Below, in pieces: positions 555-54,077 of a stretch of 64,000 nucleotides of DNA; position 1 is the first letter of the stretch; each line of letters begins with the position of its first letter. The stretch is from a phage. Position numbers and translations under genes: made by a program. The stretch lies in NCBI GenBank assembly GCA_024790105.1, contig GCA_024790105.1_3053.1; one strand, 5' to 3'. The notes beneath the pieces are model-generated. The model was given only the letters and a program-made list of their open reading frames with translations. It was not told where the DNA came from and searched no databases.

Positions 555-1879
555 TTGATTTCCTCTAAATCTTTAGTGTATTCGGTAACTACATCAGTAG
601 TTTTCCAATATTCGTTTTCTTCTTTCTTAGCTTTAGCTTCTTCAGCAAGTTTCTTTGCTTCATCAGAAGTCATGTGAAAAATATTCATTCCAATTAGTTT
701 ATCAACATAAGAAGAATACATATCGATTTTCGAAAGTTCTTCGGTCAGTTCTTTACGAGTTTTACCCTGCACAACGATTTCACCTGAAATTACTTTCTTA
801 ATGAAATGCGCCTTGGCAAAGGCTAAACGAAAAGCGGACTCAGTTTCTTTAATTTTGTTATCAATTCGTTTTTGGACATAAGTTTTACGAACTTCAACAA
901 AGTCTTTAATTAAATCAACTACGTTATCGTAAACTTGTAGTTTTCCTTTCTCATTAATAACAGTAATATTCTGAGAACGACGCTCAATCAACCCGAAGTC
1001 TTTCATAATTTTCGCGTGGCGTTCTTCTTCATTATCGCTCAAAGAATATTCTTTACGGAATTTAACTTTAAAGCCAAAACCATGCTCACCACAAGCATCA
1101 TCCCATGTAATGAAGCCTTTATCTTCAAGTGGGTCTAAGATTTTACTCACATAAGTTTCACGATCATACTTATACGGAATCTCAGTGATATTCATTTGAG
1201 TTCGTGAAGTAAACTTATATGTTCCACGAATTTCATATTGGCCATCAATCTCAACGACTTCACCACGAAATTCTGGGAATTCTACCTTCGGTTTAGTTAC
1301 TTTCTTTCCTTGAAGAGCTTGTAGTACAGCTTTCTTGACAGAAGAAACACTATGAGGAAGAATGTAAGTTGCATAACCAGTTGCAATACCGGAGACACCA
1401 TTAAGAAGAACAGTAGGAATAATAGGCAAATAGAAAGCAGGCGGAATGTGTTCTTTATCTTGATGTACCGGAGCATATTCAGTATCTTTATATACGTTAT
1501 AGAAATTTTTACTTACACGAGCAAAAATATAACGACTTGCTGCTGCTTTTTGGACGGTACGAGAACCAAAGTTTCCTTGGCCATCTAACAAAGGAAAGTT
1601 ATTATTCCAAGTATTAGCCATCAAAGCACCTGCGTCTTGCGCAGAGATTTCACCATGATGATATCCAAGGTCCGCTACACCACCTGCAATAGAAGCGAGT
1701 TTGTGAAACTTATCTTTATTTCCTCGTGCCAAATCAAGAGCTCGAGCAATAACAAATCGTTGAACTGGCTTAAATCCATCAATCATATTTGGGATAGCAC
1801 GATTTTCAACCGTGTACATAGCATAAGCCAATGCTTCATTATCAATGATACTTTTTAAATCGCGATTATTCAGTTGCAT
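551..1879 (-). CDS. 52: DNA topoisomerase II medium subunit gp52 (GyrA/ParC-like)
   Basis: 442-aa ORF, ATG at 1879; catalytic-tyrosine topo II sequence; position between motA and ndd. Confidence 0.95.
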   Translation of the reverse strand: MQLNNRDLKSIIDNEALAYAMYTVENRAIPNMIDGFKPVQRFVIARALDLARGNKDKFHKLASIAGGVADLGYHHGEISAQDAGALMANTWNNNFPLLDGQGNFGSRTVQKAAASRYIFARVSKNFYNVYKDTEYAPVHQDKEHIPPAFYLPIIPTVLLNGVSGIATGYATYILPHSVSSVKKAVLQALQGKKVTKPKVEFPEFRGEVVEIDGQYEIRGTYKFTSRTQMNITEIPYKYDRETYVSKILDPLEDKGFITWDDACGEHGFGFKVKFRKEYSLSDNEEERHAKIMKDFGLIERRSQNITVINEKGKLQVYDNVVDLIKDFVEVRKTYVQKRIDNKIKETESAFRLAFAKAHFIKKVISGEIVVQGKTRKELTEELSKIDMYSSYVDKLIGMNIFHMTSDEAKKLAEEAKAKKEENEYWKTTDVVTEYTKDLEEIK

Positions 1880-1883
1880 AAAT

Positions 1884-2024
1884 TTACCATACTAGTGAAT
1901 GTAGTGCCATAATAACATCAGAAATGAAAAGCACGACTTGAATTAATCCGAACATTACTCCATAATATAGTGCTACTAATAAAGTAGCAAGGGCTAATGA
2001 ATAGCCCAAGATTTTCTTAATCAT
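1884..2024 (-). CDS. small membrane protein (46 aa)
   Basis: ATG 2024-2022 overlaps ac stop; hydrophobic MIKKILGYSLALATLLVALYYGVMFGLIQVVLFISDVIMALHSLVW. Confidence 0.4.
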   Translation of the reverse strand: MIKKILGYSLALATLLVALYYGVMFGLIQVVLFISDVIMALHSLVW

Positions 2025-8273: not shown

Positions 8274-8805
8274 TACTGGCTCATCCATTCTTTACGAAGG
8301 TCAGCATTATCTCCCATGAGCATTTCAAAAAGCTCTTTCCAGTTCTCAGGAAGTTTAACAACATCATATACTGGGTTTTGAATCATTTCTTTATATTCAT
8401 CCCGCTGAAGTGAGCCCAATCCCTTGATGTATCGAATACTATGTTTAGGTAGAGCATCTTTAGCACTCTCATATTCAGCGACTGTATAAAACCATTCTTG
8501 TTTTTTACCTACCTGAGCGATGATTACAGGAGTTTTGACGAAGCGAATTCTTCCTTGTTCAAACAGTTCTGGCCAATTACTAAAAAATCCGAGCAGAGAA
8601 GGATAAATAGAACCTAATCCAATAATCTCTTAATTATGAGGTATTTCTATAGATAGCCCGAAGGCTATCCATCGTGATCTGCGTCTGTCATAATAGCGAC
8701 ATTCGCATAGTTCATTGAAGAGGATTTAATAGAACGACGAACATTGTTCTGCAATTTATATTTTTTCATATCAACGCTAGAAGAATCAATTTTTACAAAT
8801 TTCAT
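8273..8805 (-). CDS. 60: topoisomerase II small subunit gp60; join(8273..8617,8668..8805) with 50-nt translational bypass
   Basis: codons 1-46 (MKFVKIDSSS...TDADHDG) end at take-off GGA 8670-8668 followed by UAG; decoding resumes at UUA 8617-8615 after landing GGA 8620-8618; downstream 345-nt segment has no start codon and encodes LGSIYPSLLGFFSNWPELFEQGRIRFVKTP... Confidence 0.9.
8618..8667 (-). other. 50-nt untranslated coding gap (ribosomal hop) inside gene 60
   Basis: sequence GGA UAG CCU UCG GGC UAU CUA UAG AAA UAC CUC AUA AUU AAG AGA UUA UUG GA read directly on minus strand; take-off hairpin with UUCG loop. Confidence 0.9.
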
Positions 8806-16945: not shown

Positions 16946-17692
16946 TTATCCTCGGATAAGTTTAAAAATTGAACAATTCAGCGGGTATCCTCTTTTCAGT
17001 TTAAGTTTATCAATAAAAGACAAGTTTTGATACCGCTCTACACCTTGAATAATTTTATCACACATGTCATATTGCATTTCTGCTTCTGACAACTTTTTCA
17101 CAGTTTTCCAATCCGAGCCTTTAAGAAGAACGTTCAATTTAACAACTTCAGCGCCTTCTGCTATACGAGAACCATCAATACGAGCTTTAAGTGCTATAAT
17201 CGTTAGCTTAACGTCAGAAGTTTGTTTTGATTTAGAAAGCTGAGAAATGTGTTCAATTCGATTTTCACGTTTTTTCTGTATAGCTTTAATTTGATTATAA
17301 GTCTTTTTGATTTTAGCCCATTTCTTTTCATCTAAATTTAGTTTATGAACTTTTTTCGCAGATGAACGACCAATTCGCAAAGCAAATAAATCACGCTTTT
17401 CAATCAACTCTTCTAAAGTATAATCAGAACGAAATGTATTATACTTTTTCTTTACTGCAATAACATTCCCTTTAATGTATCCAACGTTATTATCAAAACG
17501 TTCTAATGATAATTTCTCTCCTTCAATACGATTATCAAAAGGTTCTCCCGAGTAAGCACAAACTTTTTGGTCTAAAATATTCTTAATGTAATTGAAGTCT
17601 AAGTTAAAATCTTTAGAACGTCTTTTTGCAGATGCCTGAGTATGCTCTAGACGACGTTTAATTTTACGAATTTGGTTATTAGACAGCTTCAT
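16946..17692 (-). CDS. hypothetical basic protein (248 aa), Srd position
   Basis: ATG 17692 with GAGAAAAAT SD. Confidence 0.65.
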   Translation of the reverse strand: MKLSNNQIRKIKRRLEHTQASAKRRSKDFNLDFNYIKNILDQKVCAYSGEPFDNRIEGEKLSLERFDNNVGYIKGNVIAVKKKYNTFRSDYTLEELIEKRDLFALRIGRSSAKKVHKLNLDEKKWAKIKKTYNQIKAIQKKRENRIEHISQLSKSKQTSDVKLTIIALKARIDGSRIAEGAEVVKLNVLLKGSDWKTVKKLSEAEMQYDMCDKIIQGVERYQNLSFIDKLKLKRGYPLNCSIFKLIRG

Positions 17693-17730: not shown

Positions 17731-17760
17731 ACTATAACATTTTTACCTTAACTTGTAAAC
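17731..17760 (-). promoter_or_regulatory. early promoter
   Basis: GTTTAC 17760-17755, -10 TGTTATAGT. Confidence 0.5.
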
Positions 17761-17773
17761 AACTTTATGTAAA

Positions 17774-17800
17774 AATGCTTTAAAAATTTCATGGTATAAT
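17774..17800 (+). promoter_or_regulatory. MotA-box middle-promoter-like element on plus strand, antisense to modA
   Basis: aaTGCTTTA (17776-17782), 12-nt spacer, TATAAT (17795-17800) on plus strand. Confidence 0.35.
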
Positions 17801-17817
17801 GAATCTAAGTCCTTCCA

Positions 17818-18420
17818 TTATAGATTAAATCTTTCAAAATCAAGAGTATAGATAGTGTATGTTGAATACTTTTTGTACTCATATCTATCTGCAATTCTAA
17901 ATACACTTCCAGCTGGTATCATTACTTCTTGTTCATCTGAAACTAATTCCATATTACGATAACGATGGCTATCCGGAAACTTAAAGTTTGGATTGTATTC
18001 TTTACAGCGTAGAGCTTTTATAGCATACTCCTGGAAATTGAATACCATAGGAGCTTTGAATTCAAAAATAACTTGTGTGTTATACTCTAAACCGGAAGCA
18101 AAATGTAGAGCTATATTTTTATCATATGAAGCTGATACGACTTTATCAAATATAATAATATCAATTCCTTGATTTAACACTTGCTTAGTCTCGACTGGAA
18201 CACCTCTCCAAAGAGGTTTATCGTTTGGAACCAAACGAGATTTGATTATTTCATTTAACCAAGTATGGTCATCTGGCTTATTGGTAATACAATGAATTAA
18301 AAGTTCAATTTCAGATAAATTAAACCCTTCAGAAAGCAATTCTTCACGAATAGAAGCACGCACCGATGCATCCATTGATTTTATTTTAAAATCTTTTAGT
18401 TGCATTACTGAGTATTTCAT
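17818..18420 (-). CDS. modA: ADP-ribosyltransferase ModA
   Basis: 200 aa; ATG 18420 overlapping modB stop; length and position. Confidence 0.8.
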   Translation of the reverse strand: MKYSVMQLKDFKIKSMDASVRASIREELLSEGFNLSEIELLIHCITNKPDDHTWLNEIIKSRLVPNDKPLWRGVPVETKQVLNQGIDIIIFDKVVSASYDKNIALHFASGLEYNTQVIFEFKAPMVFNFQEYAIKALRCKEYNPNFKFPDSHRYRNMELVSDEQEVMIPAGSVFRIADRYEYKKYSTYTIYTLDFERFNL

Positions 18421-21675: not shown

Positions 21676-21683
21676 TATTTATA
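21676..21683 (-). promoter_or_regulatory. late promoter TATAAATA for soc
   Basis: minus-strand TATAAATA (plus-strand tatttata) upstream of soc start. Confidence 0.6.
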
Positions 21684-22641: not shown

Positions 22642-23981
<1,340 letters not shown>

Positions 23982-24004
23982 TATATCATCCTCAGCAATT
24001 TATT

Positions 24005-24036
24005 TTATAATACCATAACAAGCTGAGAAAGTAAAC
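24005..24036 (-). promoter_or_regulatory. early promoter
   Basis: GTTTAC 24036-24031, -10 GGTATTATAA. Confidence 0.5.
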
Positions 24037-24071
24037 AAATTTATGATAAATATTAATTTAAAGGAGGACAT

Positions 24072-24272
24072 ATGGTACAAAAATTAATGGCACTTGTTAA
24101 TGCCATCAAAGGTAATAAAAAGCGTATAGCTTTTACTATTTCTGCTATGATAGGAATTTTACTTTGGAATTTTGTTTTATCGCCAGTTGCTATTGCTCAT
24201 GGCGTTAGTATTCCAGTAGTTACTCTTGATACATTCGTAGATTTAGCATTTGCTTTAGTTGGGTTAATTTAA
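24072..24272 (+). CDS. small membrane protein (66 aa) on plus strand
   Basis: strong SD AAGGAGGA 6 nt before ATG 24072; hydrophobic; convergent with gene 61. Confidence 0.5.
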   Translation: MVQKLMALVNAIKGNKKRIAFTISAMIGILLWNFVLSPVAIAHGVSIPVVTLDTFVDLAFALVGLI

Positions 24273-25297
24273 ATCTTAGCATATTTAGATAACCGCATTT
24301 TAGCCATTAACCCCTGGGCAATATTATTTTTCATATATTCCATAATTTGTTCAGGGGTTGCACCTTCCTTTCTAATCATATCATTAACATCTTTTGATTT
24401 CCAGGGAGATTTATCCCAAAACATAACCCTTTCTCCTGCATCAACTAATTTAGTCATTCGTTTAATAGTGTCAGGGTGACGAGGTTCATTATCTAAGACC
24501 CACACTCGTCTATCTTTAAATGGAACAACTTCTAGGTCTAATTGACCACCCGTAATAGCTATACCATTTTCAATAAAAAGTGAATCTATAGGTCCTTCTA
24601 GAACATATACATCACCATCTTTAACTCGTTCGACTCCATAGATTTTTGTTGCCTCAGGATAAGCTTTGATGGTGATATATTTTTGAGGAGCATCTTTCTT
24701 TAATGCACGTCCTTGAAAAGACTCAGCTTTTCCATTAGCATTATAAATTGGAATAACAAGACGAGGCTCAGAAATTTCCTTTTTATATGTTCCCGGTACT
24801 ATGCTATTAACCAATTTAGGCCATTCGGTTGTAAACCAAAGATATTTCCATTTATCCTTTGGAATACAACGAGCTTTTACATATTTTATAATTGGATGGT
24901 CTTCCGCCAGTTTATCTAATCTAACACATGACGGAAGAGATTTAATTATTTTCTTCTCAGGTTGTTTAGGAAGTTCTTTAGGTTTTTCTACTGGACGACT
25001 TTTACCTTTTTCTTTTCTTATTTCAAAGATATACTCACGATATAAATCAGGTTCAAACTCCTTTAAATATATTCCGATTGGTGCATGATAGTTACAGTTA
25101 TAACAATGAATATTTCCTTCATTATTATCACCATAATACCATCCACGGGCTTTATTTTGGTCGGTTTTTGAATCTCCACACACTGGGCATCTAAACCGTA
25201 ATTTAAAAGTTGAACTATTATTTACTTGTGTGAATTTAGGTAAATGAGCTAATGCACGGTATGCAAACTCATTATCAATCCAAGGTATTGATGACAT
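24269..25297 (-). CDS. 61: DNA primase gp61
   Basis: 342 aa with zinc-binding CPVCGD...CYNC; ATG 25297. Confidence 0.95.
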   Translation of the reverse strand: MSSIPWIDNEFAYRALAHLPKFTQVNNSSTFKLRFRCPVCGDSKTDQNKARGWYYGDNNEGNIHCYNCNYHAPIGIYLKEFEPDLYREYIFEIRKEKGKSRPVEKPKELPKQPEKKIIKSLPSCVRLDKLAEDHPIIKYVKARCIPKDKWKYLWFTTEWPKLVNSIVPGTYKKEISEPRLVIPIYNANGKAESFQGRALKKDAPQKYITIKAYPEATKIYGVERVKDGDVYVLEGPIDSLFIENGIAITGGQLDLEVVPFKDRRVWVLDNEPRHPDTIKRMTKLVDAGERVMFWDKSPWKSKDVNDMIRKEGATPEQIMEYMKNNIAQGLMAKMRLSKYAKI

Positions 25298-39807: not shown

Positions 39808-40524
39808 ATGAATTATAAACTAATTTATGAAAAGTTAATATCTAATGCTAAATCTCGAAAACTTGATTGCTATACTGAATCTCATCACATTATACCGCGC
39901 TGTTTAAATGGAAGTGATGATGCTTCAAACTTAGTAGATTTAACACCAGAAGAGCACTATGTAGCTCATCAACTTTTAGTAAAAATTTATCCTTCTGAAC
40001 CAAAATTAGTCTATGCTGCTAACATGATGACAGTTTCTACGAAATACGCTAAACGCAACAATAAAACTTTCGGTTGGATTCGTCGTAAACTCTGGGAAAT
40101 AGAAAAGAACAAAGAATTCTCCCAGGAGACACGAAAGAAAATGTCTGATGCAGTAGCTAATAAAGCAAGACTAACTTGTCCTCATTGCGGTAAGTCTGGA
40201 TTAAGCGGGAATATGAATCGTTGGCATTTTGATAACTGCCCAAATCACCCTAATCCTAAAGTTAGACCACCAATGTCTAAAGAACACAGAAATAATATCT
40301 CAAACGGGCTTAAAGCAATCGTTCTTGAAGAAACATCCTGCGAATTCTGCGGAATGATAGGCAAGAAATGCGTTATCGCAGCGCATAGAAATTTCTGCAA
40401 GAAAAATCCAAATGGACGCAAGAAAACTGAAAAGACTGGTACTTGCGTCCATTGCGGTAAAGTTACCACTTTCGGAAATTTATCAAGGTGGCATAATGAT
40501 AACTGTAAATATAAACCTAGCTAA
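39808..40524 (+). CDS. Mob-family HNH homing endonuclease (238 aa) on plus strand
   Basis: ATG 39808 with AAGGAT SD; ESHHIIPRCLNGSDDASNLV...H motif similar to MobA N-terminus; duplicated CxxC...WHxDNC modules. Confidence 0.8.
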   Translation: MNYKLIYEKLISNAKSRKLDCYTESHHIIPRCLNGSDDASNLVDLTPEEHYVAHQLLVKIYPSEPKLVYAANMMTVSTKYAKRNNKTFGWIRRKLWEIEKNKEFSQETRKKMSDAVANKARLTCPHCGKSGLSGNMNRWHFDNCPNHPNPKVRPPMSKEHRNNISNGLKAIVLEETSCEFCGMIGKKCVIAAHRNFCKKNPNGRKKTEKTGTCVHCGKVTTFGNLSRWHNDNCKYKPS

Positions 40525-42205
40525 TCTTAGCTAAACTAAATCTACCAACTTTTTCCATCTGAATATGCTGACCATATTCTTGTGGGTCATGGTCTTTATG
40601 CGAAATTATGAAGAAGTTGGTATCCTTCAAACCATCTAAAATTTTAGCTACATTTTTAATGCCTTCAGCATCAAATGCACCATCATACACTTCATCAAGA
40701 AATAAACAACTTATTTTAACACCTGAAACTTTTTCAGCAATATCACGCCAAGTAAATAAAAGAGCAATATCAATTCGTGCTTTTTCGCCTTGACTAAATG
40801 AAGCATAACTAAAATCTTCACGACCACGGGATTTAATTGTCTCATTAAATTCTTCATCTAATGTAAACACATAATCCGCTTCCATTATTTTAAGATAATG
40901 GTTAATCTGCTTATTAAATAATGGAATGTACTTTTTAATAATAGCACCTTTAATACCAGAATCTTTGAGCATATCAGTCAAAATTCCTCGGTGGTATTTT
41001 TCCATTACTAAATTAGTTTTTGTCTTAACAATTTTATCAAGTTCTTCTTGAAGCAGTGCTATTTCATCAGCATGGTCAATAAACTCAGAAGATGCTTTTT
41101 CTATAGCTGCTTTAACTTTTTTAGCTTTATCTACCGTCGTGATTAGAGATTGCTTTTTATTGCGAATATCATTTGCCAACGACTGCTGGGTTTTAATATT
41201 ATCTCGGTATTCATCAACAAGAACTTTTAAATTATCACGATGTGTTGAAAGCTGTTCAAACGAATGCGTACATTCAGAAACTTTATCTTTAATTTTAGAA
41301 ACAACTTTATCACCGGAACTTAATTGTGACAGACAGGTTGGACATAATCCGCCTTCGTGATACATATTAATGACTTTATTATACGAGTCAATTTTTGATT
41401 TAATTAAAACTGCTTCTTGACCGATTTTATTAAATGCATCAGTCGGGTCTTCATCCAAAACAATATTAACTAATCTTTCATTAGCTTCTTCTATTTCCGA
41501 TTTTAGCGTTCTAGCTTCTTTTGCCAAATCATCATACATATTTTGTAGACGAGTAAGGTTGTCACCCGTTAATTTTTTCTGGCGTTCAACGTTATCATTA
41601 TATATTTTAATTTGTTGGATAATACTATCTTTTTTAACATCAAGCACTTGGTTTTGTGAATTTAATTCACGTATTAGTGCTTTATTAAGCTTATCCATTT
41701 CAGCTAATGTTCCTACCTCAAGCAGGTCTTCCACAAGCTTTCTTCGCGCAGGGGTCGACAAACCCATGAAAGGGGTATACCCTGCTGTACCAAGGACAAC
41801 AATCTGCTTGAAACTGGCATATGACATTCCGATAAGCTGTTCAAATTCTGCTTGGAAATCTTTACTGCTGGCAGATTCATTAAGACGTGTACCGTTAACG
41901 GTGATTTCGAAAACGTTTGGTTTTTGTCCTCTTTTGATATAGTACTTTTTCTCATCATATTCCATCCACAGTTCAACTAAAAGTTCTTTCTTATTTGTGC
42001 TGTTTATTAATTGACCTTTCTTTACATCACGAAATGGCTTGCCAAAAAGCCCAAATGTGATGGCTTCTAACATAGTAGACTTACCACCGCCATTTCGTCC
42101 AGTAATAAGAGTTTTTTGAACCTTATCTAATTGAATGTCAATCCCATTTTGACCAACTGACATTATATTTTTATATTTTACTCTGTTAAGTTTAAAATTC
42201 TTCAC
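40517..42205 (-). CDS. 46: recombination nuclease subunit gp46 (SbcC/Rad50-like)
   Basis: 562 aa; GTG 42205 overlapping upstream stop with AAGGAA SD; Walker A GRNGGGKST. Confidence 0.9.
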   Translation of the reverse strand: MKNFKLNRVKYKNIMSVGQNGIDIQLDKVQKTLITGRNGGGKSTMLEAITFGLFGKPFRDVKKGQLINSTNKKELLVELWMEYDEKKYYIKRGQKPNVFEITVNGTRLNESASSKDFQAEFEQLIGMSYASFKQIVVLGTAGYTPFMGLSTPARRKLVEDLLEVGTLAEMDKLNKALIRELNSQNQVLDVKKDSIIQQIKIYNDNVERQKKLTGDNLTRLQNMYDDLAKEARTLKSEIEEANERLVNIVLDEDPTDAFNKIGQEAVLIKSKIDSYNKVINMYHEGGLCPTCLSQLSSGDKVVSKIKDKVSECTHSFEQLSTHRDNLKVLVDEYRDNIKTQQSLANDIRNKKQSLITTVDKAKKVKAAIEKASSEFIDHADEIALLQEELDKIVKTKTNLVMEKYHRGILTDMLKDSGIKGAIIKKYIPLFNKQINHYLKIMEADYVFTLDEEFNETIKSRGREDFSYASFSQGEKARIDIALLFTWRDIAEKVSGVKISCLFLDEVYDGAFDAEGIKNVAKILDGLKDTNFFIISHKDHDPQEYGQHIQMEKVGRFSLAKIS

Positions 42206-54036: not shown

Positions 54037-54077
54037 AATAAACCCTTACCTTAAATAGATAAGGGTATTTATTATTT

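Follow-up and report, generated by a model that had tools for sequence, protein, structure and literature searches.

A conserved 66-codon gene convergent with primase gene 61 of T-even phages, predicted to encode a late small membrane protein

The gene dealt with here belongs to a family that is already on record as PHROG 2024 ('unknown function') and that carries the gene name dam.1 in phage RB9 and RB32ORF030w in phage RB51. The 66-codon ORF that we analyzed is that very gene, without differences, and its product matches the PHROG profile with an E value of 8.1e-31, residues 2-66 aligning with profile positions 1-65 of 65. There is a further likeness with T4 Imm, Sp and RI, small phage proteins that are held in the inner membrane or exported through it and act on the envelope, Imm and Sp being small envelope proteins with exclusion-type jobs. 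In contrast to the gene studied here, the genes for these proteins reside on the early strand, and the 66-aa protein has no detectable similarity to any ORF of the window, by which we mean the whole stretch of 64,000 nucleotides that was analyzed. The window contains sp and, as we assume from T4 gene order, also imm. Class II holins or pinholins such as S68 of phage 21 also come to mind, since they share with the 66-aa protein a length of about 65-70 residues, a very hydrophobic character, probably late expression and possibly two membrane-embedded helices. The protein differs from them in having an N-terminal charge cluster, in lacking a charged C-terminal tail, in the length of its second helix, which comprises only 12 residues in the model, and in matching no curated holin family.

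With regard to gene arrangement, a parallel is offered by T4 late genes that are embedded in the early region, namely soc and genes for mob-type HNH endonucleases, in which a box of the late-promoter type likewise precedes a Shine-Dalgarno-equipped ATG by 19-33 nt. An HNH gene starting at position 39808 of the window shares with the 66-codon gene the location on the strand that is used by late transcription only. The 66-codon gene differs from the soc and mob-type genes by a G instead of a T at position -13 of its box and by a predicted membrane product instead of a capsid protein or nuclease; its late expression is something that we infer. Late promoters of T4 consist of a single TATAAATA box at -13 to -6 and do without a -35 element (PMC1524935). 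Early and middle transcripts of T4 are all of one polarity, and both directions are found only among late transcripts (PMC2988020). The explanation that we consider best overall, with a probability of roughly 0.7, is that the ORF is a T-even gene that would be expressed late and encode a small inner-membrane protein; that this protein modulates an event at the envelope is a speculative addition of much lower probability.

Genomic setting, family and annotation status

The window is a genome segment of a T2-type Tequatrovirus, and the 1.2 kb around the 66-codon ORF are 97-99% identical to many T2-like phages. The features of the locus are compiled in Table 1.

Table 1. Features at and around the 66-codon ORF, in window coordinates.
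Feature	Position	Strand	Basis or remark
66-codon ORF, small predicted membrane protein; orthologue of dam.1 / RB32ORF030w / PHROG 2024	24072..24272	+	ORF calling, conservation
Shine-Dalgarno sequence AAGGAGG	24061..24067	+	spacing to ATG 4 nt
Late-promoter-like box GATAAATA (consensus TATAAATA at -13..-6)	24045..24052	+	19 nt before ATG; motif conservation
T4-early-type sigma-70 promoter TTTACT-17 nt-TGgTATTAT, for 186-aa ORF and dam	24035..24007	-	promoter scan
Intrinsic-terminator-like hairpin followed by UUUUU	24109..24084	-	terminator scan; overlies codons 5-13 of the 66-codon ORF
TTAA palindrome, shared stops of 66-codon ORF (+) and gene 61 (-)	24269..24272	both	sequence
Gene 61, DNA primase, convergent neighbor	24269..25297	-	near-identity to annotated T2/T4 records; 99% identical to T4 gp61

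The first-pass annotation of this DNA had described a 66-aa plus-strand ORF with a strong Shine-Dalgarno sequence that is isolated within a minus-strand block, starts about 60 bp from a divergent early promoter and ends over the stop of primase gene 61, and each of these points is borne out by our analysis, the identity of the neighbor included (Table 1). The ORF extends from the ATG at 24072 to a TAA at 24270-24272 and encodes the 66-residue product MVQKLMALVNAIKGNKKRIAFTISAMIGILLWNFVLSPVAIAHGVSIPVVTLDTFVDLAFALVGLI. All lineages compared have an equivalent (A)AGGAG(G) or GGAGG motif upstream of the ATG, and fold prediction for the plus strand leaves the surroundings of the Shine-Dalgarno sequence and the ATG unstructured. 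At the other end, the minus-strand stop of gene 61 occupies 24269-24271, so that the convergent genes have 4 nt in common. The same tail-to-tail overlap is found in T4, Mosigvirus and VR26; in Kanagawavirus it amounts to 24 nt. The early promoter is directed away from the 66-codon ORF, toward a 186-aa ORF and dam, and phage JB75 carries an annotated promoter at the equivalent site. The ATG is 37 nt away from the -35 and about 60 nt away from the -10 hexamer of this promoter, which stands back to back with the late-type box, 9 nt lying between the two.

The isolation of the ORF becomes apparent when strands are compared: ORFs of at least 100 aa number 63 on the minus strand versus four on the plus strand of the 64-kb window, and among the latter just the HNH endonuclease ORF at 39808..40524 looks genuine. 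Apart from it and the 66-codon ORF, nothing on the plus strand of the 64 kb appears to be a real gene. The HNH ORF encodes a 238-aa HNH-type (mob-like) endonuclease, has a perfect TATAAATA sequence 33 nt upstream of its ATG and is inserted after the end of a 562-aa minus-strand gene (40517..42205), the last 8 nt of which it overlaps.

The 66-codon ORF is already known, as it is contained in hundreds of GenBank records and in a PHROG family. In GenBank, it is mostly annotated as hypothetical protein and in two records as putative membrane or transmembrane protein. The T4 RefSeq entry NC_000866.4 shows no feature in the interval, with dam ending at 17625, gene 61 starting at 17935 and a gap of 309 bp between them. 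The T4 orthologue is intact at 17738..17938 of NC_000866 (2739..2939 of locus L004) and 94% identical to the ORF in the window. At least one other T4 record, MT984581 (H110), likewise has no feature for the ORF; a newer T4 record (H51) and T2 records list a hypothetical protein. The T4 reference annotation omits, in a supposed intergenic gap between dam and gene 61, a conserved gene under purifying selection, and studies built on this annotation, be it proteomics, CRISPRi screens or expression tables, may have missed it. A literature search on dam.1/RB32ORF030w that included T4 ribosome profiling, small proteins and start sites returned no mention of the gene. Were its role to be discovered, the late membrane biology of the best-studied lytic phage would gain a component.

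The family falls into two subfamilies, A (AIKGNKK...LDTFVDLAFALVGLI) and B (MGTxFYQI...AATQG...), the latter being 29-31% identical. Subfamily B is found in Kanagawavirus, in JS98 and in Klebsiella phages, and Gaprivervirus VR26 has it as the second copy of a tandem. A tblastn search with subfamily B yielded 606 records, among them JS98 and many Klebsiella phages, a number that overlaps with the Tequatrovirus records counted for subfamily A. In VR26 (locus L006), A and B are arranged in tandem at 1495..1692 and 1701..1901, 8 nt apart, and a promoter box is present before A only. The VR26 relatives EAWsc9 and RZ (loci L007 and L019 were compared) possess A only, with a gap of 118-180 nt to the next gene, and Kanagawavirus possesses B only.

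Searches for more distant relatives mostly lead back to the family itself. Among 1.84 billion representative proteins, a profile search gave six matches, four of them with the family's hydrophobic core; two (P0032 and P0033) cover just the N-terminal 26-32 residues, and P0032 is unrelated past residue 31. No distant relatives of characterized function are present among these 1.84 billion proteins. When 5.8 billion proteins were searched by a word index, 33 close relatives came up, which are called 'hypothetical' or, in one case, 'Holin', and a narrower family alignment searched against contigs found seven viral contigs. Nine family members were compared with Pfam and NCBIfam (E up to 1) and with PADLOC without any match. 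Foldseek comparison of the AlphaFold2 model with the viral models of BFVD retrieved the own family only, and an HMM search of all six-frame ORFs in the window detected no paralogue.

Evidence for a protein-coding gene

An open frame of 66 codons is by itself unremarkable here because AT-rich DNA yields many such frames; 54 ORFs of at least 30 aa occur within 6.5 kb. The case for a gene rests on comparison. With the 66-aa protein as query, tblastn found 698 phage records and a full-length match in 686 of them. About 500 are Tequatrovirus records at 80-100% identity, and 195 records stay below 60%; among the examples listed for the latter, Mosigvirus, Gaprivervirus and Kanagawavirus reach 40-56%. 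Annotated ORFs of T2-type and T4-type phages are 89-100% identical to the ORF in the window and equal it in position and orientation. The locus is kept in T2, T4, U115, JB75, RB9, SA21RB, Mosigvirus, Gaprivervirus, Kanagawavirus and metagenomic contigs, and in every locus that was fetched the small gene lies opposite to the early-gene strand, between gene 56/dam and gene 61, and tail to tail with gene 61.

Frame and substitution analysis was performed on 27 distinct nucleotide sequences, 17 from Tequatrovirus and 10 from other lineages. Conservation of the reading frame and dN/dS in related phages, which the first-pass annotation had named as checks of its claim, both speak in favor of the gene. 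Frame +1 is open in 27 of 27 sequences, and four of the other five frames contain stops in all 27. Nei-Gojobori dN/dS ratios amount to 0.11-0.25 for most informative pairs (0.50 and 0.60 in two pairs of low divergence), the mean pN/pS of the small ORF within Tequatrovirus is 0.21, and variable alignment columns are distributed over codon positions 1, 2 and 3 as 44/20/56, position 2 being the least variable. Although synonymous sites have reached saturation between genera (pS 0.7-0.8), the ORF keeps its length, its frame and a number of residues. Codon-phased substitutions and frame conservation thus testify to purifying selection at the protein level, and by this comparative evidence we have shown the 66-codon ORF to be a genuine protein-coding gene of T-even phages. 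As judged by amino acid identity, it is evolving faster than its neighbors: between genera, the small ORF is 29-55% and gp61 61-73% identical, and a comparison of the window phage with one Mosigvirus gives 55% for the small ORF, 73% for gp61 and 86% for gp56.

The remaining frame, antisense frame -2, is stop-free across 24072..24269 in all 17 Tequatrovirus sequences and contains stops in all 10 others. A coding function of this frame was rejected on account of its closure in the 10 non-Tequatrovirus sequences, and its openness in Tequatrovirus is probably a non-coding by-product of codon usage.

Late-promoter-like box and antisense relation to gene 61

The small gene is located opposite to the early genes and is therefore expected to be late. 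From the box upstream of it (Table 1) we infer a transcript start near 24058 and a leader of 14 nt; late RNA polymerase, dependent on gp55, gp33 and gp45, would start about 6 nt past the box, and the short leader would carry the strong Shine-Dalgarno sequence. The core ATAAATA occurs 16-22 nt upstream of the ATG in eight out of nine upstream contexts that are otherwise unrelated. The box reads GATAAATA in the T2 type, in the T2 type with a 10-nt insertion and in the T4-type deletion context, AATAAATA in the dam-less RB3 type, in Mosigvirus and in the metagenomic lineage L027/L028, CATAAATA in Gaprivervirus and TATAAATA in Kanagawavirus; the metagenomic lineage L029/L030 has TATTAATA in place of ATAAATA. 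In T4, just 2-3 nt separate the GATAAATA box from an upstream deletion junction and no sequence is shared further upstream, which fits a promoter without a -35 element. Within the box, conservation is lowest for the T at -13, and the window carries a G there, which is not the commonest variant. In T4, A is found at -13 in 9 out of 50 listed late promoters and other single deviations exist (PMC2988020), and T at this position has been described as 'poorly conserved' among T4 relatives (PMC1524935).

The distribution of the motif in the window points in the same direction. On both strands together, NATAAATA is observed seven times versus about 41 times expected, a roughly six-fold depletion; TATAAATA is observed four times versus 9.9 expected, and VATAAATA, with three occurrences versus 30.9 expected, is depleted ten-fold. 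Six of the seven copies reside 19-33 nt before an ORF-opening ATG, namely those at 21676 (-, soc), 39767 (+), 52810 (-), 62312 (-), 54066 (-) and 24045 (+), and the six ORFs thus preceded include soc, the HNH gene and the 66-codon ORF. A purine run of the type AGG, GAGG or GGGG is found before the ATG at five of these six sites, the site at 54066 having only AAGG/AGGG. Going by these counts, single-mismatch late boxes appear to be selected against unless they are used. Taken together with the strand, the signals make it quite probable that the 66-codon gene is transcribed only late.

The sole NATAAATA copy without a real ORF is a GATAAATA sequence at 8602..8609 (+), where the next ATG opens a frame of six codons. 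This site could be an orphan late start, a promoter for an antisense RNA or a chance occurrence.

On the opposite strand, the terminator-like hairpin folds at -12.7 kcal/mol (z -3.0) and is situated about 160 nt past the stop of gene 61, the early promoter following directly. The same hairpin has been annotated by TransTermHP in phage SA21RB, and it is likely that it terminates the gene 61 transcript. The plus-strand copy folds no better than shuffled sequences because the minus-strand hairpin relies on G-U pairs. An equivalent terminator was sought in Mosigvirus, Gaprivervirus and Kanagawavirus and was not found. Being absent outside Tequatrovirus, it cannot explain the conservation of the ORF, and RNA structure was rejected as the cause of that conservation on the same grounds; within Tequatrovirus, the hairpin on the opposite strand could account for some of the conservation at the N-terminus. 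In the early phase of infection, the gene 61 message would be antisense to nearly the whole small gene, up to the terminator. Its 3' UTR, ending at the hairpin, is the sole predicted antisense RNA to the small gene; a weak sigma-70-like match at 24100..24072 (-) is within chance expectation. In the plus-strand direction, no terminator was detected within 330 nt after the 66-codon ORF, and the late transcript of the small gene may continue antisense into gene 61.

Predicted product, possible roles and the ORF next to dam

The 66-aa protein has a GRAVY of 1.28, and all five of its lysine and arginine residues are confined to residues 4-18, N-terminal to the hydrophobic stretch. With a Kyte-Doolittle window of 19 residues, values of up to 2.0 are attained over residues 19-42. 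The C-terminal 20 residues are amphipathic, and their hydropathy is 1.9 in subfamily A, which passes the threshold, and 0.5-1.2 in subfamily B, which fails it. AlphaFold2, run with a nine-sequence alignment, models helices at residues 2-12, 16-42 and 52-63 with a mean pLDDT of 77.5. M1, W32, N33, P38, G44 and P48 are invariant in both subfamilies. Hydropathy and model thus favor the small membrane protein that had been proposed in the first-pass annotation, and the product is very probably a small inner-membrane protein with the following modelled arrangement. The amphipathic N-terminal helix (2-12) and the basic KGNKKR cluster would stay in the cytoplasm, where the N-terminus is placed because of the positive-inside rule; a single long transmembrane helix of 27 residues (16-42) would follow, and a short amphipathic helix made acidic by D53 and D57 (52-63) would come to lie on the periplasmic side. 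Instead of lying there, this last helix possibly re-enters the membrane as part of a helical hairpin; as modelled, it has just 12 residues. The architecture is ordinary for a small membrane protein of a phage.

Conserved asparagine residues within membrane helices are classic drivers of helix-helix association. As the invariant Asn33 sits inside the membrane helix, we propose that this polar residue, next to Trp32, might mediate association of the protein with itself or with another membrane protein. By way of such transmembrane helix association the protein could modulate what happens at the envelope late in infection, for instance the timing of lysis or lysis inhibition, a suggestion that we make tentatively and regard as rather unlikely in this specific form. 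More doubtful still is the wider picture of an unrecognized late envelope component of T-even phages that would tune holin T/RI lysis timing or act in late exclusion, that the T4 annotation gap would have hidden from genetics and screens, and whose transcript might also silence primase mRNA.

Several other readings of the locus have to be weighed, and three of them place the emphasis on RNA or on its control. That the ORF is untranslated and owes its conservation to the gene 61 3' UTR with its terminator, to the divergent promoter or to sequence associated with a replication origin might be concluded from the terminator hairpin within codons 5-13, from the empty interval in the T4 reference annotation and from the literature searched, in which no report of expression was found. 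Yet substitutions are codon-phased, with position 2 least variable and a dN/dS of about 0.2, the frame remains open at 29-55% amino acid identity where the DNA is saturated, Shine-Dalgarno sequence and ATG are kept everywhere, and the ORF persists in genera without the terminator, all of which renders this reading extremely improbable. Better founded, and still quite unlikely, is the idea that the main product is an RNA, i.e., that a late transcript from the GATAAATA box runs antisense to gene 61 and shuts off primase mRNA, the protein being secondary. The missing plus-strand terminator within 330 nt past the ORF and the convergence with overlapping stops in every lineage would suit such a function, and there are sites in T4 where one strand is transcribed at one time and the other strand at another (PMC2988020). 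Purifying selection, however, acts on the protein sequence, and a strong Shine-Dalgarno sequence, an ATG and a conserved frame of 65-69 codons are not needed for an antisense RNA; furthermore, the paralogous second ORF of VR26, inserted between the first and gene 61, fits a function of the protein. The gene could also be imagined to encode a membrane-depolarizing peptide resembling type I toxins, which the complementary gene 61 3' UTR silences early and which is released late. The ORF is small and hydrophobic, and codons 5-66 are covered in antisense by the gene 61 transcript, which extends up to the terminator at 24084, but neither a dedicated antisense promoter nor a small RNA is predicted, the antisense terminator arrangement is confined to Tequatrovirus, a late promoter would already provide temporal control, and Pfam and NCBIfam searches relate the protein to no known type I toxin. 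We consider this highly improbable.

Where the protein itself is taken as the functional entity, a holin or pinholin that makes the lethal, lysis-starting membrane lesion would agree with a small, hydrophobic and probably late product, and homologues in OE5505 and EAWsc9 do bear the labels 'Holin' or 'holin family protein'. None of the nine family members matches a Pfam or NCBIfam holin model (E up to 1), though, and the fold search against BFVD points to no holin but to the own family. The protein has a transmembrane helix according to hydropathy and model and lacks the charged hydrophilic C-terminal tail that holins have; with its charged region at the N-terminus and a hydrophobic C-terminus (...FALVGLI) it shows the reverse of the usual holin layout. 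Moreover, T4-type phages already use holin T with the antiholins RI and RIII, and r and t genetics are not known to have implicated the locus of the 66-codon gene. We do not count the protein among the canonical holins, see no support for the 'holin' label that a few records carry, and regard a holin function in general as very unlikely. A late membrane factor for superinfection exclusion or anti-defense, which blocks entry of secondary phage DNA or neutralizes a membrane-associated defense or protease of the host, would be in keeping with a predicted small inner-membrane protein whose modelled terminal helix faces the periplasm, with the restriction of the family to enterobacterial T-even phages (six matches among 1.84 billion representative proteins) and with an evolution faster than that of the neighbors (55% versus 73-86% identity). 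Against it stand the missing similarity to Imm, Sp or other ORFs of the window, the absence of a PADLOC match, the early expression of known exclusion genes as opposed to the apparently late expression of the 66-codon gene, and an almost universal presence in the genus that contrasts with the patchy distribution of typical accessory counter-defense genes. We regard such a role as unlikely. Our preferred reading remains that of a probably late T-even membrane protein, for which a modulating function at the envelope is a guess of low confidence.

The neighboring 186-aa ORF at 23421..23981 (-) deserves a comment of its own. An ATGA overlap couples its translation to that of dam, and it features an invariant D72...E85-x-K87 motif. 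Its match to Pfam DpnII is below threshold, and PADLOC REase_II is matched with an E value of 9e-5; by these signs the protein may have a fold similar to that of type II restriction endonucleases. When T4 (L004, NC_000866, about 2633-2716) is compared with 23421..24044 of the window, the last 27 codons of the 186-aa ORF are left and the rest is deleted together with the early promoter. In view of this deletion, it is conceivable that T2-type phages carry a restriction-endonuclease-like partner of Dam that has been lost in T4.
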